Shown here: positions 2,327 to 32,706 of the stretch, one piece after another
Numbering within the stretch: position 1 is the first letter of the stretch
How the letters are laid out: each line of letters opens with the position of its first letter
Made by a program: the position numbers and the translations under genes
Notes under the pieces: generated by a model
The model's input: the letters and a program-made list of their open reading frames with translations, nothing else
Told to the model about the DNA's origin: nothing
Database searches by the model: none
From: a virus
DNA: 64,000 bases
Virus record (IMG/VR): IMGVR_UViG_3300035670_000130
Span: 1-64,000 of that record
Reading direction: 5' to 3' (one strand)

Positions 2327-3226
2327 CTAAATAAGATTATCTGTCCAAACTCGCATACCTATCTTATCCGTGCCCCAGGTTCCGACGCACATCCAATAGG
2401 CTTTTTGGTCTGTCTCTACTTGTCCTGTGTCTGGGTCTATGCCCGTGTTGCGGTAGATTTTGCCGACAACGGCTGTAGAAGGGAGTATCATCATGTTCCA
2501 CAGCTTGCCTATGTAATTATTGGGGGCGGTAGAATCTCTAATAATTACGTCTGTAGAATTTGCGCTAGGGGTGGCGACAGAACAAGAAAGGGTGGGGTTT
2601 TGCCTACTCACATTAGTTGCTGTCGTTAAATTCTCTTGAGCAACACGTTGAGAAGCCGTCAAGTCCCAGAAGACATAGTTCCTAGGATACTGTAAACCAG
2701 AGTATACACCCTCTTTTAACCAGCCCTGATACCCCATGGTATAAGGCTCACTTGTATCTACTTGGTTGTTCGCAAATGCTTTTATGCAGATTGAATAGTT
2801 GTTTACTACTCCAAATATCATTTGATAAGAGCTTGGGGCGTTTGCGTAATTCCCCCAGCTTGACGTAGACGTAGTTATATATGAAGCATTAATACCATTG
2901 CCAGTACCTATCCTTGCTGTGGTGGTAACGTAGTAGGGGGCTAACACACTCCTTGCGTTACCAACTCCATCTACACCGGCGAACCCAGCCCTGGATGGTG
3001 CGGCTATGGTTCCTGTCTTGGTTTCCCAAGGAACAGGCCATCGTATAGCCCAAGCGTAATCACCTCCATCTTGCGTCCATTTAGTTCTGTCATCACCAAA
3101 GTGTGCAGTTAGTAACTGCGTTATTCCGGCTCGACCAGGGACTTCCCCCTTTACGACTGGATCAATATAATTCAGAAACGTAGTAGTCTCGCCGTTAATA
3201 GAGATTTGATTGATTAAGTTTGTCAT
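2327..3226 (-). CDS. Tail-associated structural protein (unknown family)
   Basis: 299-aa ORF. Its ATG (3226-3224) overlaps the upstream stop as ATGA, which suggests translational coupling inside the tail operon. Confidence 0.65.
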   Translation of the reverse strand: MTNLINQISINGETTTFLNYIDPVVKGEVPGRAGITQLLTAHFGDDRTKWTQDGGDYAWAIRWPVPWETKTGTIAAPSRAGFAGVDGVGNARSVLAPYYVTTTARIGTGNGINASYITTSTSSWGNYANAPSSYQMIFGVVNNYSICIKAFANNQVDTSEPYTMGYQGWLKEGVYSGLQYPRNYVFWDLTASQRVAQENLTTATNVSRQNPTLSCSVATPSANSTDVIIRDSTAPNNYIGKLWNMMILPSTAVVGKIYRNTGIDPDTGQVETDQKAYWMCVGTWGTDKIGMRVWTDNLI

Positions 3227-4425
3227 GGTGTTGGTAATCCTGATGTATCTTGTTGACAGTAAACAATAGTGCCATCAGCAGGGATAGGGCTATAGGGATT
3301 GGGAAGACTGGACGTATCCTGTTGACAGTAGAGAACAGTTCCATCGGCAGGAATAGGACTATAGGGATTGGGGAGGCTGGACGTATCTTGGGCACAATAC
3401 GTTATTGGCTGTACATAAAAGTCACTAGCATCCTGTGGGCAATATCCAGTATCCGTCTGTGTACTGGTAACAATCGTAAAGTCAATATTAAAGAAATTAG
3501 AGGTATTCTGCGGGCAGTAATTGGTGTCAACCTGTTTCTGATCCTGATTCCCAATTGCATAATCGGGAATAGTTTGTGGACAGTAGCTGCTGTCGGTTCC
3601 ACTGTAAACAATAGTGAAATTAATTGCGTAATCAGGTACGACCTGTGGACAGTAGTACAACCAGTTGGGATCTGGGATGATAGTGTAATCAGGTAAAACC
3701 TGTTGACAGTAGTAAGGCCAATCAACCTCAACTCTCCGTGCTGGGCCATTCGGATAAATGTCTTCCCATTTGCCAGTGACAATAATTTTGTAGTCAAGAT
3801 TAGTGAATTGGTTAACTGCACGACCTCGGTTTAACCCGAAGAATGCCTGTGCCCATTGACCTCCACGACCATAGGCATCTAAAACCTGGATTTTACACAT
3901 CAACCCATTCTTAATAGCCTTTCGTACCGCCGCATAACCTGGGTCGGTATGAACCCATGCGCCACTAGCTGTTCCACTTGCCGTAATACCGGACACACGA
4001 CCTGCGATTTTCCTATTAGAAAAACCCTGATCAGAGAAAAAGTTCATCGCATTGTCGGCATTGACGACCTTTGCGGAGAACAACGGGATCGGGGTGTCCA
4101 GTGTGCATCTACTGCCAGGATAAATACCAGCGGTGGAAGGGAGAATGGGAATTGTCGTCTCCCCAGGTTCCACTACGTCAGCTAAAAATACAGAGAGTGG
4201 ATTTGCTTCAGTCCCAAAATTAAGCCTGGTGCCCTCATAAAGCCGGTAGGTAGAACCAGACTGGAGGATAATCTCTTCATCGCCAGGCTGGACAAACCAG
4301 TCCAAGACGAGCGTTTCTGAAGGGATAGGGCTACCAAACCGATATGGTTCCGACAGGAAAACCTTGGTCTGCTGACCAATGTTGTACCTGCTGGTATCAT
4401 TCAGTTCGGAGTATTGCCTAGACAT
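3223..4425 (-). CDS. Tail tube-like structural protein, long paralog with C-terminal YC(P/Q)Q repeat extension
   Basis: 400-aa ORF. The N-terminal ~230 aa are clearly homologous to the 4435-5133 product (MSRQ...RYNIGQQTK.FLSEPYR.G...LNFGTE...SGAW..DPG.A...AIK.G..CKIQVLD..GRGGQ). The C-terminal ~170 aa carry about 9 YCPQ/YCQQ/YCAQ units. The tube-like assignment is inference. Confidence 0.65.
   Translation of the reverse strand: MSRQYSELNDTSRYNIGQQTKVFLSEPYRFGSPIPSETLVLDWFVQPGDEEIILQSGSTYRLYEGTRLNFGTEANPLSVFLADVVEPGETTIPILPSTAGIYPGSRCTLDTPIPLFSAKVVNADNAMNFFSDQGFSNRKIAGRVSGITASGTASGAWVHTDPGYAAVRKAIKNGLMCKIQVLDAYGRGGQWAQAFFGLNRGRAVNQFTNLDYKIIVTGKWEDIYPNGPARRVEVDWPYYCQQVLPDYTIIPDPNWLYYCPQVVPDYAINFTIVYSGTDSSYCPQTIPDYAIGNQDQKQVDTNYCPQNTSNFFNIDFTIVTSTQTDTGYCPQDASDFYVQPITYCAQDTSSLPNPYSPIPADGTVLYCQQDTSSLPNPYSPIPADGTIVYCQQDTSGLPTP
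3251..3388 (-). repeat. 69-bp tandem repeat (2 near-identical copies plus degenerate copies upstream) inside the 3223-4425 CDS
   Basis: tgttgacagt recurs at 3251 and 3320, with tgggcacaat at 3389. Each unit encodes YCQQDTSSLPNPYSPIPADGT(V/I)(L/V). Confidence 0.9.
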
Positions 4426-5144: not shown

Positions 5145-8100
5145 TTAAATAATTCCACCACAAGAAATAGACATGGCATTTTCATTATCAGTTATTTCTT
5201 GAGTCGTAAGCACACGATCCCAGATCGCTACTTTGCCAATATTTCCCCGAAAATTCCATGTTGATGATGTTACCGTTTGTGGGCCTATTGCCAACGGAAA
5301 CGTAGAGGGTTGAGTAATTCCACTGCCAGACTGAGAAGTGGTCAGCGACTGTAAAACTCCGTCGATCCTAACCTTTTGCCTATCAGTATTAATAACTTCG
5401 GCTTGATCTACAATTACTGTAATAATATTTCCTGTCGTGTCACTTAGGATCAACGTCGGAGTTGACTGCCTTAATCGATCAGTTGTTGTTCCTGTTCCGG
5501 TAGATACGTCTATTCCCCCGCTGTTGCCCCTAATGTAAATACCACCCTCGGTAGTAGAAGACGGATCGCCTTTAGATAACAAGTCGCCTATTGGATACTG
5601 TGAATTAACAGGGCCGACTGCGATCATGATTGTATATTGAGCCGATGCCCCAGAAAAGACATCGTCTAATATGTCGCCAAAACTCAGTCCGTTTCTGTTT
5701 GCATAAACAAACTTAAACGACGGAGTGTTATTTAATTCCGTCAACGTATGCAACAAGTTTTGCTGGGAATCGGTTGTGTAATTAATCGTACTTCCAGGAG
5801 CGGTAAATGGAGCAACAACGGTCGCCCCTTGGGTTCCTGAATATTGCGCCGCATCCAAAAATGCAACAAGCCCACTTCCGGTTGGGGTATAAATACCACC
5901 CAAGACAGTAAACGTGCCAGCAGCAACATCTCCAACCGGATAAGGCGGAGATGTATTGCCAACAACAGTAATCGTTCCCGTACTGGCACCAGTAGGAATA
6001 GTTGCAGTAATCTCGGTATCGCTAACAACAGTAAAGTTCGTCAAGTTTATAGTGCCAATTTTTACCCCTGTTGCATTAGTCGTAAAGTTAGTACCAGTAA
6101 TCGTAATAGAGGTGAGGGAATAACCTGTATTTGGGCTAAGTCCAGACACCGTCATAACAGAAGCATTAACCGTAAATGTTCCTGCGTTTACATTTGCCGG
6201 TGGAACAGAATATGAAGTGTTACCAAGCACTGTCAATGTCCCAGTCTCGGTATTAGATGGAACCGTGGCCGTAATTTGACTACTGGAAACAATAGTGAAA
6301 TTGGTCAGCGCAACCGCTCCAATCGTGACCCCCATCGCATAATTAAGCCCTGTACCATTAATGGTAATAGAAGTAGACTGTCCGTAGGTGTGTGATGTCG
6401 GAGTAAAGTCACTAACCGTCATAACAGGAGCATTGACACTAAACACCCCAGCTACAACATCATCCGGTGTAGACGGCAACCCTGTATCTCCCAAAACAGT
6501 AAGATTACCGGTAACTGCATTAGCTGGAACAGTGGCGGTTACATGGGTGCTGGAGACAACGGTAAAGTCAGTTAAAGCAATAGCTCCAATCGTGACCCCC
6601 ATGGCATAATTCAATCCGGTTCCGTAGATATTGACGGTAGTGGTCTGTCCAGAGGTGTGGAATGTCGGGTTGTAACTAGTTACAGTCATCTCAGGAACAC
6701 CAAAGGTAAAAGTTCCTGCGTTGATGTCACTAGCTGGATTCGGCAACTGATCGTTAGCCAGAATGATAATATCGCCTGTCCCAGCTAAATAAGACACCCT
6801 TGCCGTGACCTGAGTTGGCGAGACGATGACGTAATTGGTCAGGAAGTAATTATTTATTCTCGCCCCTTCCGACTTGTCTAGGTTAGTGCCGGTAATGACC
6901 ACGTCTTGAGATTGTCCAACTACTCCAAAATTGGGAACGATACTTGTTACCGTCATGACTGGAGCGACCACTAGGTCAGGCGACGAGTCAATGGTGCGCC
7001 CCCATCCCCTGCCAACAGTAGCGTTCATCTGATAAACCGTAACGTTAACATCCTCCTGGACAACTCCGAAATCCATGATCTGCCTTGTGGCAGTATAGTT
7101 AACAAAATTCTGATTGGAGGTAAGCGTTCCACCGCCGAGAATAGCAACCTCATATTGCTCTGAAGTCTCACTCATTGGCAATCCAGTGAACGCACTGGCG
7201 TACCCAGATCGTCGATCTCTCCGCACCCAGGAAATAGTCATGTCCCCATCTTGATTTTTCACCACTTCTACACTGGCTGGTGAGTAAGGTTTGTTGCAAT
7301 AAAAAGCAAGCTGGGGAATCGTATAGTAATCGGTAATAGAAGACTCTATTGCCCCAGTGCCAACAGCTTTAAACCGAATCTCCCTACCAAGATCATTTGG
7401 GAGCATATCTACCCGCAGAAGTGGACTAGACAGGCAAACAACGTCACTATCAATAGCATGACTACCCATAGCCCACTCCGTCCCACGAACACCCCGACGG
7501 AGGTAACTAATGGTATAAGTCCCCTCTCCGGTCAGCGTGGCATCTCTGGCCATAATAAACTCGTCTCCAACCAGGAAGAGAAGACCCCTGTTGTCATCAA
7601 ATTTTTGCTGGGTAACCGAAGATAGCTGACCATTTACCCCATAGACAACAAAACTCTGGGATGTCTGCAAGCTCGACAACCCAGACACGTCCATAGGCGG
7701 TGGAGCAGTACCAAGCTTACCAACAACAGTAGAACCGGACACACCACCTACCGAGTCGTAACTAGCACCTCCATCACGACTCATGACAATAGTGCCACCC
7801 CGCCAGCCCTCACTGCCAACTACAGCCACATATACGGAATTGTCGGGATCCGTATCGTTGATCAAATGAATGTCAAGTGGGATAAGGGTTGCCGTTCCAG
7901 GCGTTCTAACGACAGGCGGGGCATAAGATGTCGCAATTTCGGTAACAGGCACTGGGGCTGCGTTTAAATCTGGGAAAGAGGGAATGATGGACGGATCTGG
8001 TGGCGGAGGGACTAATGCCATTGTGCTTGTACAAACACCTTTAACCACAACACGGTAGTCATTTGCAATTAAGACTTCGGTCAACCTATAAACACGACAG

Positions 8101-24977: not shown

Positions 24978-25528
24978 AACAGATTCTTTATTAAGCTTGG
25001 ATGTCCGGTATCCGCTGAGAGAATTACGCTGATTTTTTCTTCGGCTCTGGACAGCCAAGATTTTTGCATTTTTTCCACTAGCTCAACTTTTCGCAATGCG
25101 GTTTGACTGGTAGATTCAGTCCGTTCTACCCTAGCACGAAGATCGTCAAGTGTATCGTCGATCTGGGAAAAGCGAGGTTGTATTTGATTGTAAAGACCAA
25201 TTAGTCCCTCCTGGACTGCCTGTTTCGTGGATTCGTGATTTTCCTGCTTAAATCGCAACCTGCCTAACTCGACCGACTCTTCCTTTCGCCTTTCCGATTC
25301 CATCCTGGCTCGATTAACGAAAAATCCAACAACACCAGCGAGGATGAGGGCTAAGACCTCTCCACTGAACAATCCGTCGATCAATCTCTCTAAAATATTC
25401 TGACTGTTTGGAGTAGCCGTAACCGAAACAGCATAAGCCATGACAAAGATAAAGGCGAGAAGCACCCTTGTCGCAAAACTAGAGATAAACAGAATGATTT
25501 GTTTTAACTGTTCCACTGGAATATCCAA
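24938..25528 (-). CDS. Membrane / coiled-coil protein; start uncertain
   Basis: 196 aa. Two hydrophobic helices ([24 protein letters not shown] and [14 protein letters not shown]) are followed by a coiled coil. The start is TTG or GTG. It overlaps the terL 3' end and, convergently, the thyX 3' end. Confidence 0.5.
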
Positions 25529-28271
25529 CTAAAGGTGCATCACCATCAACAATAATTGTATTTCGTGGATTAGTCACTTGCTCAAAAGCCCCAGTGGCTG
25601 CGTCAACAATATCGTTTACCCTTGGCCGGCGCATACCATCGAAGGACTCTACTGCCGACAGGAATTCACCATTCCAGTCGCCTCTAATCAGAAAAACATA
25701 GCCGAGTCTCGCCTGAGTTGCGAGCGGCAAAGCCCTTTGCAACTTAGACTTATCTGGTTTAATTGCCTTGACATCGTAGCGAACATCAAGCTTTTCAATC
25801 TCCTTGGCAAAGGACTCTTCAACGATCTTGCCAGATGCTCCACCTTCCAATTCAAACCTGATCTTTGTCCTGACTCCATCAGCGATTGCACATCCCCTGA
25901 TCGGGCCGATCACTTCACCTCCTTTTACCTGCATAACTTGCAAGTCGAAGATGTAAATATTGGTGCCAATCATGCCCATCAGGCAACCTGCCGTAGAGCA
26001 ACTATCACTGCCTGCGTCCTCTCTTGCGGTGGCCGCCAAATCCCAAAATCTAATTTTAATGAGGGGTTCTCTCGGCAACTCTTCATAGTCAATAATCTGA
26101 AACCAGTTTCGATCAAAGACGATCCCAGCATCATGTCGGATTTTCCAGTTACCAAACAATAACCGTTGCTTCTCAACCTCCTCCAGGGAATTGAGATTGG
26201 ACAGATACTGCGGGTTGACCCGTAGCAACGCTGGGTTATCAAAAATACTAGCGGCAATAAAACTAAAGCTTTTGACCATATCGTCAAAAGTCACAAGTCC
26301 ATTAGATGCCTCGACCACCGGGGCTAAACTGTCGTAATGCTCCTCGATCAAAGCCTCCTTGGTGTCATCCCAATGAACCTGATTATTCAATCGCACGAAA
26401 TATCTTGTGACACCGCTTCTCTCTGGAATTGGATAACCAGTCTCCGGGTTCCACCACCATTGAATAAAATTAGCAACCCAAGAGTCTGCATCTGGGTTCA
26501 TCGTCGCCCGCACCTGGGGTTTTACTCCGCAACCAGAACGATTCCGGGAAAGCATATAAAAAAAACTCTCTTCACTAAAATGACACAATTCGTCAAAACC
26601 AATCCGTGCGAACTGCGCTCCCTGATATTCGTAAACCGTGTCTTCATGTCTAATATGACGAAAGGCTATCTGACTGTTGTATTTCTCCCAACGCCAAGTA
26701 GGGGGCTTACTCACGAACCTCCCACCAATATTGCGATACAAGTTCTTTGACTCATCCACCAACCCACCAGGATTAGTCAACTCGGGATAACTCTTCCTGA
26801 AAATTACGCAATTATATCCTATGGACTTAATATACTTTTGTTTAGCACTATCCAACAATAGAAATAGGCTGTTATGCGTTGTGTTGTAGCCGTCGCAAAC
26901 ATAAAGCCTGTTTGGATTGCTGACGACAATACATCTTGCGAAGTCAACATCGGTCGGCTCAATACTGACAAGTCCTTTTCCCGGCCATGAATTACCACCA
27001 TTGAACTGACCATGCGCCAACGCCTTCTCTCTTTTTCTTGGAAGAGAGAATAGCAGTTCAAGATGGTTTCCCTGAACAAACACAGTATAGGCAAGTTTTC
27101 CTTCTCTTTTTTCGCCGCAGTGGGTATAACACGGAGTTCGACTACCAATCCTTGCCATATAGCCAAGGCTTCTCACAAGATCCGAGACCTGCTCCGCAAG
27201 TCTAGGGCTTGTTGTAGTGTAAGAAACCTCTCGTTTTCCAACATCACCAACGGTTCCATCGGTGTCAAACAACCCTTGTGCAAGGTTATAGCGAAACTCA
27301 AGCGGAGCGGATAGGTAACCTTCGCTGAATTCCTTATCCCAGCACCTAACACCACGGTATCTATTGTTATGAACCCAAGCCTTAAACCATGGAACCCTCG
27401 TCAAATGAACCTGGGTAATCGGCAGATAGCCGTCTTGAACCGGCGGAATAGTTTTTTGAGCAGCCCCCTCTCCGGCAATTTCCTTGACCTTTTCAGCTAT
27501 AAAGTCATCAGTGGTAGTCAGTATAAAACTGCCGCCCCTCTCTTCCCCAAAATGACCATCACCAATCATCGCACCATAGACATAGGCTCTTTCGTTGTCC
27601 CTAAACGATCTTGCGGTAAATTGCAACGGAGCGTTTATCGGAAAAATAAACCTTCGTCCTTTTTTTGTTTCATTGATCAACCACTTGGTATCCCGGACTC
27701 TGGCTCTGGTAATGTAATTCTTGTTCCAGCCACGGGGGTCGAGATTTGAATAAACAAAATTCTCGCCATTGCAGGTTTTCCGTCTACTATTACACCGAGC
27801 TTCCCAAAACGACCACAGGTGATCCTCTGTAGCCTCTACCGACGTACCATCTTCAAATGTAAGCAAATAAAATTGCATCATTCCCCGATCTTGTATTTGC
27901 AATACCTCTTGGTATTGCCCGTCGGGATTCATTATTTTTTCGCCAACAGTTAAGTCAGAAAAGTCGATCCATTTACCATCCCAGCGCAAAACCTTAGTAT
28001 CCAAACCGGCAACGACATCTGGCACGGAGGACAATTCGACACCATGTCTTATGGCGTAGCCAAGCTTGGCACACCTATTTGCCTTACCGCTACCCGCAGC
28101 CCCGCCCACAAAAAGAACATCCGCCTCATGATGATACATCTGCTCTTGCTTGCCGGGTTGAGGCGGAGGCAGAGTCCAGTCGGCACCGGATCGGGAATCC
28201 GCCTTTGACTTATTGGCTGCCCCGATCCGCCGCTGGTTTTTAAGATTGAGTCGGCTGGTTAATGCGTTCAT
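25479..28271 (-). CDS. terL: Terminase large subunit, interrupted by an intein
   Basis: ATG 28271 (MNALTSRL). The Walker A FVGGAAGSGK is split from SLFLLLDSAKQKY...VIFRKSYPEL by about 404 aa. The C-terminal nuclease half includes IRFWDLAAT and GDWN. Confidence 0.85.
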   Translation of the reverse strand: MNALTSRLNLKNQRRIGAANKSKADSRSGADWTLPPPQPGKQEQMYHHEADVLFVGGAAGSGKANRCAKLGYAIRHGVELSSVPDVVAGLDTKVLRWDGKWIDFSDLTVGEKIMNPDGQYQEVLQIQDRGMMQFYLLTFEDGTSVEATEDHLWSFWEARCNSRRKTCNGENFVYSNLDPRGWNKNYITRARVRDTKWLINETKKGRRFIFPINAPLQFTARSFRDNERAYVYGAMIGDGHFGEERGGSFILTTTDDFIAEKVKEIAGEGAAQKTIPPVQDGYLPITQVHLTRVPWFKAWVHNNRYRGVRCWDKEFSEGYLSAPLEFRYNLAQGLFDTDGTVGDVGKREVSYTTTSPRLAEQVSDLVRSLGYMARIGSRTPCYTHCGEKREGKLAYTVFVQGNHLELLFSLPRKREKALAHGQFNGGNSWPGKGLVSIEPTDVDFARCIVVSNPNRLYVCDGYNTTHNSLFLLLDSAKQKYIKSIGYNCVIFRKSYPELTNPGGLVDESKNLYRNIGGRFVSKPPTWRWEKYNSQIAFRHIRHEDTVYEYQGAQFARIGFDELCHFSEESFFYMLSRNRSGCGVKPQVRATMNPDADSWVANFIQWWWNPETGYPIPERSGVTRYFVRLNNQVHWDDTKEALIEEHYDSLAPVVEASNGLVTFDDMVKSFSFIAASIFDNPALLRVNPQYLSNLNSLEEVEKQRLLFGNWKIRHDAGIVFDRNWFQIIDYEELPREPLIKIRFWDLAATAREDAGSDSCSTAGCLMGMIGTNIYIFDLQVMQVKGGEVIGPIRGCAIADGVRTKIRFELEGGASGKIVEESFAKEIEKLDVRYDVKAIKPDKSKLQRALPLATQARLGYVFLIRGDWNGEFLSAVESFDGMRRPRVNDIVDAATGAFEQVTNPRNTIIVDGDAPLVGYSSGTVKTNHSVYL
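26871..28082 (-). mobile_element. Intein with LAGLIDADG homing endonuclease in the terL P-loop (candidate class 3)
   Basis: Removing A78-N481 restores GGAAGSGK|SLFLLL. Block B is ATEDHLW and the C-terminus is YVCDGYNTTHN|S. LAGLIDADG motifs are YVYGAMIGDGHF and LAQGLFDTDGTV. The Trp (B12), Cys (ARCIVV, F4) and Thr (TTHN, G5) fit the class-3 WCT triad. The exact N-junction is uncertain: a block-A-like AGLDTKVL occurs 24 aa further in. Confidence 0.75.
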
Positions 28272-28545
28272 CTGGAATAGTGGACACAAAGGCACATAGG
28301 CTCTGCGTATCAAAAGGATCTGTTACGGGGGCTTGCAGTCCCAGTAGTTCCTCAATCAGTTTATTTACGGATGCGACTACACGCTCAAAAGACTCGACCG
28401 CAGAAATAGCTGAAACATGCAAAACCGCATTGTCTAACGACTCCAACGCAGTCTTGGTGGCAGATACAGCTTTAATTAACTCGGATCGAAGCGGTTCATC
28501 AACAACTGACAGGTTTTCAATCAAACGCTGATACTCTTCTTGCAC
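28240..28545 (-). CDS. Hypothetical protein upstream of terL (small terminase candidate by position only)
   Basis: 101 aa, GTG start with a GGGGGGA SD. It overlaps the terL start. Confidence 0.5.
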   Translation of the reverse strand: MQEEYQRLIENLSVVDEPLRSELIKAVSATKTALESLDNAVLHVSAISAVESFERVVASVNKLIEELLGLQAPVTDPFDTQSLCAFVSTIPDERINQPTQS

Positions 28546-30473: not shown

Positions 30474-30929
30474 GTTTCAGTCCCGATCACCGGGATTAAC
30501 CTTTTGATCGACTTGATCGCTTTCCCAAAAAATGGGTTTTTTTACAAGTTTCAGTCCTGATCACCGGGATTACCCTTTTGATCGGATTACTCTCTAATGT
30601 TTCAGTCCCGATCACCGGGATTAACCTTTTGATCGTTGCCTCTGGACTTCTTATCTTGTTTTCTAATCCACGGTTTCAGTCCCGATCACCGGGATTACCA
30701 TTTTGATCGGATGAATTACTGGATTAAGCCGATTTAATAGAGGCAGTTTCAGTCCAGATCACCGGGATTACCATTTTGATCGGCGACTAAAACTTCGGGG
30801 CTGATGCCCGGAAACTCAGTGTTTCAGTCCCGATCACCGGGATTACCCTTTTGATCGCCACAGTAATTGCTCGGTTCTGCCTGTGTTTAAACGTTTCAGT
30901 CCAGATCACCGGGATTACCCTTTTGATCG
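30474..30929 (-). CRISPR. CRISPR array, 7 repeats of 37 nt and 6 spacers (37, 14, 37, 36, 38, 35 nt)
   Basis: Repeats GTTTCAGTCCCGATCACCGGGATTA(A/C)C(C/A)TTTTGATCG occur at 30474, 30548, 30599, 30673, 30746, 30821 and 30893. There is an internal 5-bp hairpin TCCCG-ATCAC-CGGGA. The strand is inferred: the minus-strand reading ends ...GGGACTGAAAC and is co-directional with the nuclease gene. Confidence 0.93.
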
Positions 30930-31026
30930 TCTGGCTTCCCTATCCTTTGCTAGGCAATGATTTGGGATATGATTTTGGCAAACCCCAGCAATATGCAGTT
31001 TTCAAGGTTCAGAGTCGGCAATCAAG

Positions 31027-32706
31027 TTATCCTGTTAAATCCCACAAGCTAAGCTGTATGGATGTTTCGGGGTCTTGGCAAAGGGGGGAGGGTTTTTGCC
31101 CCCGCTTTGATTTGCCAATTTTTGCCGATTCAAAAAACTCCGGTGATCGGGACTCGCTAGTAATCTCTAGCGGTGGGGATGAATCCCCTTCCTGCTGACC
31201 CCCAATGCTATTACTAGACTTATGCGAGGCAGAGGCAGGCTTTTGACTTTCGTCGATTCCCCCAACGAAACTGGGGTATCTTTCCATATTGGAAACCTGT
31301 AAACGGTGCGGATGGAGATTGTGTTTCAGTCCCGATCTTATGGGATGAATTTTATAAGCATTACTCCAATCGGCACGGTTATGAATGTTGATCGCCGCAT
31401 TAATATCAGCATTCATTGAATGCCCGCAGGCGACACAACTAAAACTTGATTGACTTTTGCGGTTCTCCTTTGCAACGTGACCGCAATTAGAACAGGTTTG
31501 GCTGTTGTGGTGAGATCGTACAAGGTGAACTTCATTGTTGATGGTTTTGGCCTTTGCTTCCACCATCACCTTTAATCGTCCACAGGCAACGTCTTTTAGG
31601 GAACGATTTAGCCCCCGCTTCTGTGCTTGATTATTACGGGCATAGCCTTTGCCATCCTCACGGAGTTTGGCTTTAGCTTTGCGTCCCATGTTATTGAAGC
31701 TGTTATCTTCAATGGCAATGCCGCCAAAAGAGGTAACAAAGTAGGTACTTTCCTTGTGCCAGAAAGCATTCCGTTGACGAGCTACCGTTTCGTGGAGTCT
31801 GGCAACTTTTGCTTTTTGCTTCTGATAGTTTTTCCCCTTGACACCTCCGCCTTCCCTTAATCGGCGGGACATTTTTCGCTGTTCCCGGCGTAGCTTTTTA
31901 ATTTGCTTGGATAGGAATTTAGGAGCATCAACTTGCCTACCGTAATCGGTGGAAGTAGCAAACCGAACGCCAGGGTCAATAGCAACAGCAACATCAGGCA
32001 TTTTGACATTAGGAACCGGCCAATCATGGCGAATCGCTAACTGCAAATACCAACCAGTAGCCTTGCGGCAAATTCTGGCAGTGCAAATTTTTGAGTCCTT
32101 GGGGACTCTTTCTAACCCCTTTGTTCTGATATTACCCAGCAAAGGGAATCTGATTCTTGTGTTGCCAGATATTTTTGCCGTGCATTCTCCGTTGCTTAGG
32201 GATGTCAACGGAAATCGCTCGCCCTTGAACTTGGGACATTTGGCGTTAACCCGTTTTTTATCCTTGTAAGCTTTCCATGACTCTAGCAAATCATCTCCGA
32301 TCCCACCCTTGAACCGAGTACAGAAATTATCTAGCTGGGTTGCTCGATAAATTACAGACCGTGGCGCACCGTCCACATTTTGCGGATGGCGAATTGAGCA
32401 GGCTGGGTAATGTTCGTTGTGACGACGGTTGTAAGCAGTAATTGCACAACAGGCACCAAACACAGCTTTTCCGTCAACTTTATTTGGAAACCACTGCCAA
32501 GCCTCGTTGCCCTCCATCGGGTCAAATCCTGCTTTTTTCCGCCAGTCCTGTTGGTCTTTCTCCAACAAAACCGCCAAGCCATTATTCCAAACCCTACGCC
32601 CCCGGTCTAACCAGTCCGTCAGCGTTCTAGCTTGAGACTGGTTTGGATAAAGCTTGAACTCCAAGGTCTTGATTGGTCGCTTGTCGCCTGATTCCTTGCG
32701 GGGCAT
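31027..32706 (-). CDS. tnpB: TnpB/Cas12-family RNA-guided nuclease (RuvC D-E-D intact, zinc ribbon), CRISPR-adjacent
   Basis: 559 aa from ATG 32706 (MPRKESGDKRPIKTLEFKLYPNQSQARTL). RuvC-I is VAVAIDPGV and RuvC-II is GGIAIEDNSFNNM. The zinc ribbon is CSNCGH...FSCVACGH and RuvC-III is NADINAAINI. The track ORF extends to 32823, but that extension lacks family signal. The last ~120 aa are low complexity and overlap repeat-like RNA elements. Confidence 0.88.
   Translation of the reverse strand: MPRKESGDKRPIKTLEFKLYPNQSQARTLTDWLDRGRRVWNNGLAVLLEKDQQDWRKKAGFDPMEGNEAWQWFPNKVDGKAVFGACCAITAYNRRHNEHYPACSIRHPQNVDGAPRSVIYRATQLDNFCTRFKGGIGDDLLESWKAYKDKKRVNAKCPKFKGERFPLTSLSNGECTAKISGNTRIRFPLLGNIRTKGLERVPKDSKICTARICRKATGWYLQLAIRHDWPVPNVKMPDVAVAIDPGVRFATSTDYGRQVDAPKFLSKQIKKLRREQRKMSRRLREGGGVKGKNYQKQKAKVARLHETVARQRNAFWHKESTYFVTSFGGIAIEDNSFNNMGRKAKAKLREDGKGYARNNQAQKRGLNRSLKDVACGRLKVMVEAKAKTINNEVHLVRSHHNSQTCSNCGHVAKENRKSQSSFSCVACGHSMNADINAAINIHNRADWSNAYKIHPIRSGLKHNLHPHRLQVSNMERYPSFVGGIDESQKPASASHKSSNSIGGQQEGDSSPPLEITSESRSPEFFESAKIGKSKRGQKPSPLCQDPETSIQLSLWDLTG
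31126..31154 (-). ncRNA. Inverted degenerate copy of the CRISPR repeat (candidate tracrRNA/omega-RNA anti-repeat)
   Basis: The plus strand cgattcaaaaaactCCGGTGATCGGGACT compares with the reverse-complement repeat cgatcaaaaggttaatcCCGGTGATCGGGACTgaaac. There is a 15-nt perfect core (31140-31154) plus a flanking CGAT.CAAAA match. The loop sequence (GTGAT versus ATCAC) shows that the copy is truly inverted. Confidence 0.6.
31323..31359 (-). repeat. Degenerate direct copy of the CRISPR repeat inside the nuclease CDS
   Basis: The plus strand GTTTCAGTCCCGATCttatGGGATgaaTTTTaTaag shares its first 15 nt with the array repeats and is in the same orientation. It encodes ...IRSGLKHN... on the other strand. 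Confidence 0.6.

Follow-up and report, generated by a model that had tools for sequence, protein, structure and literature searches.

A probable tracrRNA encoded within the 3′ end of a phage-borne, C2c8-like type V CRISPR nuclease gene

The 64,000-nt stretch of viral DNA analyzed here (positions 1 to 64,000 of IMG/VR record IMGVR_UViG_3300035670_000130, hereafter the window) is a phage genome, encoding a tail protein, a large terminase, a cell-wall hydrolase, a primase-polymerase, and a helicase. Its minus strand holds a minimal type V CRISPR module, in which a nuclease gene is followed by a leader and an array (Table 1). An original prediction, made from the sequence alone, had placed two extra copies of the array repeat inside the nuclease open reading frame (ORF), a direct one (here copy A) and an inverted one (copy B), and had read them as a candidate trans-activating CRISPR RNA (tracrRNA) or omega-RNA remnant. 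From comparison with related loci, we consider it likely that the last ~100 codons of the nuclease gene also encode a tracrRNA, overprinted on a disordered tail of the effector as in Cas12n.

Table 1. Positions of the nuclease gene, the array, and the RNA and protein features proposed for the gene's 3′ end
Feature	Coordinates	Strand	Remarks
Nuclease ORF	31027..32706	-	559 aa from ATG at 32706
C-terminal tail, residues 457-559	31030..31338	-	putatively overprinted on structured RNA
33-nt in-frame insertion holding copy A	31310..31342	-	window only (DNA alignment A3, columns 63-95)
Unpaired block CCGUUUACA	31298..31306	-	invariant in seven closest loci (A3, A6)
Predicted stem-loop S1, UUUCC-AAUAU-GGAAA	31281..31295	-	one pair C-G → G-C in L162
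Predicted pseudoknot hairpin, CCCCA-GUUUCG-UUGGGG	31260..31276	-	loop GUUUC complements last 5 nt (GAAAC) of every repeat
Predicted stem-loop S3, GAC-GAAA-GUC	31244..31255	-	G-C → A-U in 3 loci
Predicted composite stem S4	31191..31239	-	outer CCUGC/GCAGG plus inner helices
Predicted stem-loop S5, GGGGA-UUCA-UCCCC	31175..31188	-	encodes part of 'QQEG' motif
Predicted stem-loop S6, loop AGAUUA = 'EIT' codons	31155..31172	-	directly 5′ of anti-repeat
Putative anti-repeat (copy B), AGUCCCGAUCACCGG AGUUUUUUGAAUCG	31126..31154	-	pairs with repeat positions ~1-33
Predicted stem S7, UUGGCAAA ... UUUGCCAA around G/C hairpin	31075..31118	-	3′ of anti-repeat; RNAalifold on A3
Codons of C-terminal peptide Q-L-S-L-W-D	31039..31056	-	conserved at protein level
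Leader, stop codon to first repeat	30930..31026	-	97 nt
CRISPR array	30474..30929	-	7 repeats x 37 nt, 6 spacers; sense repeat CGAUCAAAAGGGUAAUCCCGGUGAUCGGGACUGAAAC

Both copies are real, and both lie within the nuclease ORF. In the 64-kb window, each of the two 15-mers occurs in the array and at one extra site only; dinucleotide shuffles gave chance expectations of 0.00 and 0.09 for these extra sites, which argues against coincidental matches. The core of copy A, GATCGGGACTGAAAC (minus strand, 31337→31323; GTTTCAGTCCCGATC on the plus strand, 31323-31337), is an exact 15-nt match to the end of the repeat and reaches 17 nt (31321-31337) once two bases beside one array unit are added. Copy A had been described as spanning 31323-31359; its first 15 nt are indeed identical to the repeat, whereas the other 22 nt are weakly similar (~8 of 22 positions without gaps), with a shifted T.ATCCC block as the exception. 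We rejected copy A as a full degenerate 37-nt repeat, and regard the 3′ 15-17 nt alone as convincing. Copy B (CCGGTGATCGGGACT, 31140-31154) is inverted and matches four of the seven repeats at 15/15 positions and the other three at 14/15; the proposed inverted 15-nt core, AGTCCCGATCACCGG, recurs exactly at this site, and the pairing extends to 31126. RNAduplex joined 31 nt of the tail to 33 nt of the repeat at -39.8 kcal/mol, compared to -22.6 ± 1.7 kcal/mol for shuffled repeats (best shuffle, -25.4).

The window nuclease is a TnpB-derived, C2c8 (V-U2)-like, Cas12p-related type V effector. It carries the Pfam domains OrfB_IS605, Cas12f1-like_TNB, and HTH_OrfB, and it passes the NCBIfam guided_TnpB model (183.9 bits against a cutoff of 100). 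Its best NCBIfam match is V_cas_c2c8 (NF038192) at 284.9 bits, and because this lies under the cutoff of 350 we term the protein C2c8-like rather than a member; three relatives exceed that cutoff (P0024 with 390.9, P0026 with 374.9, and the protein of phage CL131 with 450.8 bits). Cas12p (9jfs) was the top PDB match both by sequence (phmmer, E 1.7e-29) and by fold (Foldseek, E 1.7e-20), followed by TnpB, the Cas12p alignment spanning the WED, RuvC, and zinc finger (ZF) regions alone (query residues 129-440 to chain residues 345-716). The RuvC residues D244, E333, and D434 and the CxxC...CxxC zinc finger are invariant across homologues (protein alignment A1). A single RuvC/TnpB-like effector stands beside a CRISPR array, and the layout is the same in 12 relatives. 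No transposase besides the nuclease was found among the families named in the gene tables of these 12 loci, in which many neighbours have no family, and no cas family was among those named in the neighbouring-gene tables. As for the hallmarks of IS200/IS605 elements, the gene is present in a single copy in the window and no TnpA gene was seen, while element ends were not specifically searched for.

A protein search returned full-length homologues at 36-84% identity, two of them named C2c8 by NCBI. The loci retrieved were L161, L162, L165, L167, L168, L170, L171, L173, L175, and L177-L180, together with L181, which is Aphanizomenon phage vB_AphaS-CL131 (MG209611.1; hereafter CL131), and L182, from Limnothrix rosea. 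Metagenomic loci that extended past gene and array had mostly phage-type neighbours (capsid, portal, terminase, RusA, Bro-N, and pRha). Every locus with enough downstream sequence, except L173, carried a co-directional array; the array-bearing relatives examined were 11 metagenomic or assembly contigs and the isolate phage CL131, which cover the same 36-84% range of protein identity. Pattern scans of genome and viral contigs with the broad alignment A1 gave just generic, distant TnpBs (L001-L160), used solely as negative controls for a covariance model. In IMG/VR, clade-specific peptide patterns and a DNA pattern for the pseudoknot hairpin described below found no match, and neither did a megablast of the locus against GenBank phages.

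For the array, the CRISPR RNA (crRNA) sense most likely corresponds to the minus strand, on which the nuclease is encoded too. Rfam CRISPR-DR52 matches the array on this strand, albeit below threshold (30.5 bits against 50); these sub-threshold matches alone appeared in the Rfam search of the window, omega-RNA and tracrRNA families being without a match. In L177 and L170 the degenerate repeats are those farthest from the nuclease, which places the leader on the nuclease side. The leader is 95-100 nt long in most loci, its sequence is kept even in homologues of 36% identity and in the cellular C2c8 locus of L. rosea, and its motif CTTTGCCAAAA is near-invariant (9 of 10 loci). The geometry of the predicted RNA agrees with the same direction. 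Given a minus-strand crRNA sense, a transcript in the nuclease direction would carry copy B as an anti-repeat and copy A as a sense copy of the repeat's 3′ end; on the plus strand, the repeat reads GTTTCAGTCCCGATCACCGGGATTACCCTTTTGATCG.

In all loci but L179, where RNAduplex picked another site, the best repeat-complementary stretch was found at the homologous place directly after the 'EIT' codons (in CL131, the position was read by eye). The original prediction had suggested looking for covariation in homologous loci, and there the anti-repeat tracks the local repeat even where the encoded amino acids change. Copy B itself encodes E-S-R-S-P-E-F-F-E-S, and in the window the repeat GGUGAU faces the anti-repeat AUCACC, read as SRSP in the protein. 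L161, L165, and L177 combine GGCGAU with AUCGCC and keep SRSP; L170 combines GUUAAU with AUUAAC and has SRLT; and L175 combines GGGAUUG with CAAUCCC and has PPQKGA. The anti-repeat of L167 (SRSH) matches one array repeat at 21/21 positions. L178 and L168, whose nucleases are 72% and 60% identical, use an unrelated repeat family ending CGGUUGAAAC, and their anti-repeats start with CAACCG and encode PNPARG. Over the seven closest loci (constructed alignment A4), the 21 repeat:anti-repeat pairs were 94.6% paired and 7 of them changed on both sides; none of 500 shuffles reached the observed values, except one of 500 for the both-side-changed count, and slid registers collapsed. On this comparative evidence, copy B is a conserved anti-repeat of a putative tracrRNA-like RNA that lies over the 3′ end of the nuclease gene.

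The anti-repeat is preceded by a conserved structured region. RNAalifold, run on nine loci, placed 8 helices with 37 pairs 5′ of the anti-repeat, with 97.3% of cells paired. Compensatory changes on both sides were found in 15 of the 37 pairs; four of five measures were reached by none of 500 shuffles, and slid controls gave one to three both-side-changed pairs. Such changes affect 6 of 6 pairs in S4 inner helices 5 and 6 and 4 of 5 pairs in S6, which has 100% of its cells paired, while S5 takes the forms GGUGA/UCACC in L170 and GGAGA/UCUCC in L168. Read as RNA, the peptide motifs 'EIT' and 'QQEG' are the predicted loop AGAUUA and the predicted stem GGGGA/UCCCC. The 5′ region of the tracrRNA is likely the invariant CCGUUUACA block.

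The pseudoknot hairpin is present in 13 of 13 phage-clade loci, with a diverged form in CL131. Its loop is GUUUC in seven loci whose repeats end in GAAAC, CUUUC in three whose repeats end in GAAAG, and CUUG in CL131, where the repeat end is CAAG. The repeat bases matched in this way are the last ones, left unpaired by the anti-repeat. Because the hairpin loop tracks these last repeat bases across loci, the pairing potential indicates that the loop and the repeat terminus can form a pseudoknot. The CCGUUUACA block was also considered as the pseudoknot partner and was rejected, since it shows no covariation with the repeat end, unlike the hairpin loop.

A covariance model of the scaffold (R1), built from nine loci, matched the window at 31306→31156. 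It scored 131-173 bits on its training loci, found four non-training loci (L180 with 47.6, L171 with 39.0, L173 with 37.7, and CL131 with 35.6 bits; E about 1e-9 to 1e-12 in this range of 36-48 bits), and gave no match in 100 generic TnpB loci (1.07 Mb). On the 3′ side of the anti-repeat, UUGGCAAA can pair either with UUUGCCAA in the tail, forming S7, or with the near-invariant UUUGCCAAAA in the leader, where the motif UUUGCCAA recurs. In L171, the sequence after the anti-repeat pairs with the leader at 14/14 positions (6542-6555 with 6726-6739). An alternative long-range helix between tail and leader is possible and would bring the anti-repeat near the first repeat.

Several loci add to the picture of the scaffold. 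In the cellular C2c8 locus of L. rosea, the anti-repeat is non-coding, the ORF ending directly behind RuvC-III. CL131 carries the same scaffold at 3835-4141, with an anti-repeat matching at 19/22 positions directly after S6; its annotated ORF stops at 3892, and the homologous tail runs on through this stop and a +1 frameshift to end in T-Q-L-T-L-W-stop shortly before the array. The description of this phage reported tracrRNA sequences as absent and the array direction as elusive (PMC6293099). The covariance-model match, the 19/22 anti-repeat, and the pseudoknot loop contradict the absence of a tracrRNA, and the strand signals of our analysis also disagree with that verdict on array direction. 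L173 (P0026, annotated C2c8) keeps tail and scaffold at 6420-6551, with no array in the 5 kb to each side; from its loop, CUUUC, one would expect repeats that end in GAAAG. L170 holds a second, non-coding scaffold copy (2018→1875, minus strand; 105.5 bits with R1), which lies 3 kb away from the nuclease gene on the other strand, is preceded by a promoter-like TTGACA-18-TACAGT, and shows compensatory changes within its stems. Where an anti-repeat would follow S6, this orphan scaffold has GGGUCUGAAAG, similar to the repeat's 3′ end, and no array is nearby; possibly it is a stand-alone RNA of a guide-like or decoy type.

At the protein level, AlphaFold2 gave residues 457-559 a pLDDT score of about 26 and no secondary structure, and disorder is predicted for the tail of ~100 codons. 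Constraint acts on its synonymous sites and is relaxed on its amino acids: the proportions of synonymous (pS) and non-synonymous (pN) differences, after Nei and Gojobori, were 0.41 and 0.28 in the tail compared to 0.68 and 0.16 in the core. The tail had been regarded as low-complexity, but the frame of the ORF contains no stop codon in 14 of 14 loci, compared to 0-11 in the two alternative frames, and the tail terminates in QLxLWD, a conserved peptide; tail indels in the DNA alignment are multiples of three. Junk or read-through sequence, considered as an explanation of the tail, was rejected in view of the open frame, these indels, and the C-terminal motif. QL[STNE]LW[DN] occurs in nearly all tail-bearing homologues, its Leu and Ser/Thr codons varying synonymously. 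The tail appears to be dual-coding, combining a structured RNA with a maintained reading frame and terminal peptide. It would be a natural case in which RNA structure, not protein function, sets most amino acids of a ~100-residue tail.

The terminal motif (seen at the C-termini of P0003-P0012, P0018-20, P0024, P0030, and P0036, with QMSLFLI, QLSFDF, or QLAFDLYG in distant homologues) resembles the bacterial beta-sliding-clamp-binding motif of the QLSLF type. A DnaN-like clamp is encoded in related phages, either next to the nuclease on its upstream side (L165, 17-1126) or 2 kb upstream (L162, 2686-3795); in the window, no beta-clamp gene was detected by tblastn with the L165 clamp protein. Through this motif, the nuclease may be tethered to the replisome.

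It is the conserved, tracking anti-repeat, the covarying hairpins, the pseudoknot loop, the constrained synonymous sites, and the open frame that make an overprinted tracrRNA likely. The structured RNA would be ~180-190 nt long (about 31306→31126), comprising the pseudoknot hairpin, four to five further hairpins, and the 3′ anti-repeat, and would descend from a TnpB omega-RNA. Each repeat of the pre-crRNA would pair with the 3′ portion of the nuclease transcript, or with an RNA that is processed out of this portion or starts there, the anti-repeat engaging nearly the whole 37-nt repeat, and the duplex and pseudoknot together would form the scaffold bound by the nuclease. The crRNA would run on the minus strand from the 3′ part of the repeat, ending in GACUGAAAC, into the spacer, which would guide the targeting of DNA, probably that of competing phages. 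The proposal of a tracrRNA or omega-RNA remnant over the 3′ end of the nuclease gene is thus upheld by the anti-repeat of copy B and the covarying hairpins; its other half falls away, as copy A is no such remnant.

A number of observations weigh against an overprinted tracrRNA. Alignment A4 is a constructed alignment, and its L167 row used the best-fitting variant repeat. The L162 anti-repeat fits the main repeat at 80% and the terminal repeats better. In distant loci, duplex energies do not beat the best shuffles, because an inserted CCCC-loop-GGGG hairpin splits the anti-repeat. The 9-13 loci share descent, several covariations may be single events, and the GAAAG/CUUUC loci may form one clade; with few loci and shared ancestry, the shuffle-based significance overstates independence. 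Gene conversion between inverted copies could in principle preserve the match without any RNA function. When folded by itself, the window RNA reaches a z-score of just -1.65, the C2c8 score of the window protein is under the NCBIfam cutoff, and a consensus scan of the tail surroundings in the window predicted no promoter or terminator delimiting a separate tracrRNA.

An alternative that differs from an overprinted tracrRNA solely in how the RNA is produced is a cis-only element, in which the anti-repeat pairs with the first repeat or repeats of one nuclease-leader-array transcript, yielding a processing site (e.g. for RNase III) or a single-guide fold and coupling crRNA maturation to turnover of the nuclease mRNA. 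We think this rather unlikely. The gene, leader, and array are indeed co-directional with a fixed spacing of ~97-100 nt, no internal promoter or terminator was predicted in the consensus scan, UUGGCAAA can pair with the near-invariant leader motif UUUGCCAA (14/14 in L171), and the anti-repeat spans nearly the whole repeat, as in RNase III-processed systems; however, the upstream scaffold, with its pseudoknot hairpin and S1-S6, resembles the effector-bound tracrRNAs of Cas12n and Cas12p, and L170 has its stand-alone, non-coding copy with a promoter-like sequence. A further reading, which we regard as improbable, takes the tail for the right-end omega-RNA of an IS200/IS605 element, with the array arising in situ and both copies left over without function. 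The protein passes the guided_TnpB model and resembles TnpB structures, and omega-RNAs extend over the 3′ end of tnpB. In-situ duplication of omega-RNA segments is one described route to an array, capture of an existing array another (PMC10691335). This relic would, however, be hard to reconcile with a copy A that lies in a window-only insertion and is not ancestral, with homologues of 60-72% identity that carry unrelated repeats and matching anti-repeats, pointing to swapping or re-matching and not to a frozen state, and with a repeat resembling Rfam CRISPR-DR52, which suggests a captured repeat type. Moreover, ongoing covariation speaks for a function at present, neither a TnpA gene nor multiple copies were seen (element ends were not looked for), and the module occurs in varied phage contexts. 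The swapping of repeat families among close homologues (nucleases 72% identical use an unrelated repeat family with a matching anti-repeat) and the resemblance to a CRISPR repeat family likewise disfavour the idea that the repeat was born by duplication of the 3′ end of an omega-RNA, and capture or re-matching of an array for the nuclease clade would be favoured instead. Finally, copy B might have no RNA role at all and be kept for its peptide E-S-R-S-P, or by gene conversion or chance, as the always-open frame of the tail and the recurrence of 'SRSP' in five close homologues could suggest. The comparative data largely refute this, and we give it scarcely any credence: the peptide (SRSP, SRLT, SRSH, PNPARG, SAPKGE, or PPQKGA) changes exactly where the repeat changes, the cellular C2c8 anti-repeat sits in non-coding DNA, scaffold and anti-repeat persist in CL131 although its tail frame is broken, the synonymous sites of the tail are constrained, and the flanking hairpins and pseudoknot loop covary, which gene conversion with the repeat cannot explain.

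Copy A calls for a different account. Its insertion is unique to the window, appearing in the protein alignment as an 11-aa insert (IRSGLKHNLHP) in the window protein alone, and a solitary repeat tag was not found in any other locus; for this reason copy A is no ancestral remnant of an omega-RNA or of the repeat, contrary to what had been supposed. The insertion consists of 18 nt of repeat-like sequence and a duplicate of the local CACAATCTCCATCC, and copy A is most likely the scar of an illegitimate, microhomology-mediated recombination with the array, to judge by its sequence. In frame, the repeat's own loop GGT would read GAC TGA, and the observed ATAA stays open; selection for an open frame appears to have shaped the insertion. 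We also weighed a functional copy A, acting as a solitary mini-repeat that gives a hard-wired guide or as a decoy acting in cis, which would hide anti-repeat and pseudoknot loop within the full-length mRNA, and find it very unlikely. Exactly 15 nt are kept, enough for 10 bp with the anti-repeat core and 5 bp with the pseudoknot loop, and in the Cas12p structure the crRNA keeps just 10 repeat nt (bioRxiv 10.1101/2025.01.20.633832). The 24 nt after copy A match L177 at 24/24 and L162 and L170 at 23/24 positions; the 5′ flank of that match is GCT or GAT in these three loci, compared to AAC at the repeat end, and the sole protospacer found (L178 spacer 28, in L162) is flanked by GCA. A functional copy A is nevertheless confined to one locus and so without comparative support, its duplicated flank and the microhomology ATCC look recombinational, the ATAA variant is simply explained by avoidance of an in-frame TGA, and the inference of a protospacer-adjacent motif (PAM) behind it rests on a single protospacer. 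Its most specific form, which we hold to be very unlikely indeed, makes copy A a mini-repeat 5′ of the scaffold on the nuclease transcript and the next ~24 nt, where the tracrRNA and tail region has its conserved beginning, a built-in guide against the nuclease/tracrRNA genes of rival phages: the 15 nt would dock onto the anti-repeat core and pseudoknot loop, and the phage's own copy would be shielded by the repeat-derived flank AAC. If true, this would be a CRISPR system with an inbuilt guide against competitors' versions of the same system.

The layout described here is already known from Cas12n and ultimately from TnpB omega-RNA, and is no new kind of system. Cas12n (type V-N, formerly V-U4) is likewise a miniature TnpB-derived effector with a co-directional array and a tracrRNA over a disordered tail. 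That C-terminal tail is reportedly dispensable, its coding sequence holds the tracrRNA, and the guide consists of three to four stem-loops, an anti-repeat:repeat stem, a few unpaired bases, and the spacer (PMC12216341; bioRxiv 10.64898/2026.03.27.714800). The window shares with it the anti-repeat on the strand of the array transcript, the putative tracrRNA in a disordered tail, and a conserved scaffold. Cas12n nevertheless belongs to another protein lineage (PDB 9j09, E 2e-21 by sequence and 43rd by fold) and is found in Actinobacteria, whereas the window module occurs in cyanophage-like phages; and its tail is reportedly dispensable, whereas the window tail keeps its frame open and its conserved QLxLWD end.

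Cas12p ('Cas12 hacker', type V-P) is phage-encoded, with a ~185-nt tracrRNA, a disordered C-terminal domain, a 37-nt repeat, and a pseudoknot (AAAC:UUUG) between the last 4 repeat nt and the tracrRNA (bioRxiv 10.1101/2025.01.20.633832). The predicted pseudoknot of the window corresponds to this one and to those of further Cas12 tracrRNAs. The window module is similarly phage-borne, with a repeat of the same length, a predicted repeat-end pseudoknot, and a predicted disordered C-terminus. Cas12p differs in its size (a 741-residue chain with a thioredoxin-binding insertion in REC, the window protein being ~180 residues shorter) and in its pseudoknot partner, which lies at tracrRNA nt 7-10 and not in a hairpin loop as in the window; just about residues 130-440 of the window protein can be aligned to it. 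C2c8/V-U2 loci are the best NCBIfam family, share the gene-leader-array order, keep the leader motif, and have an anti-repeat both in L. rosea, where it is non-coding, and in cyanophage CL131 (PMC6293099). They differ in that the cellular ORF ends after RuvC-III, leaving the anti-repeat intergenic, and in that the CL131 tail frame is interrupted. V-U2/C2c8 has been listed as uncharacterised among the original V-U groups of miniature Cas12 (review PMC11641405). The TnpB fold (8h1j) matches the window protein, and the omega-RNA of TnpB is similar in having its scaffold overlap the nuclease gene's 3′ end on the same strand, with a pseudoknot to the guide-adjacent segment. In contrast to a single contiguous omega-RNA with one guide, the window RNA is split: the scaffold ends in the anti-repeat and is followed by the leader and a multi-spacer array of separate repeat-spacer units.

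For the phage-borne C2c8-like clade, CL131 included, the array direction, anti-repeat, pseudoknot loop, and ~180-nt scaffold are now defined, so that a single-guide RNA can be designed and the nuclease directly reconstituted; V-U2-type systems thereby become directly testable. CL131 is the one isolated phage that carries V-U2, and the scaffold is detectable in it even though it was reported without a tracrRNA (PMC6293099).

Array units are irregular in the window, where one spacer has just 14 nt (30585-30598), and in L167 (2528-2860), where repeats are truncated and spacings range over 29-104 nt. This suggests evolution by recombination and not by Cas1-Cas2 acquisition. Searches of GenBank phages with the window and L178 arrays found no spacer targets. 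Spacer 28 of the L178 array (3968-4003) matches the L162 gene region at 1920-1954 (31/35; 5′ flank ...AAGCA), the only cross-locus protospacer found; this single case hints at phage-against-phage targeting with a possible G-C-N PAM. The spacer-target search of GenBank phages with the L175 array (2907-4177) gave a ~100-nt, 73% match in three pieces to the Microcystis phages MaMV-CH01/CH02/DL01/DL02. The matched stretch is unannotated (e.g. PP681321.1, 40337-40438), is probably repeat-like, and may be a small repeat cluster of the L175 repeat family. In the window, the array has as neighbours PhoH-like and ribonucleotide reductase (RNR) small-subunit-like ORFs, named by reading their translations. 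A LAGLIDADG homing-endonuclease domain lies within the large terminase ORF (25479-28313, minus strand; 944 aa), suggesting that an intein is present or that a homing endonuclease has inserted.

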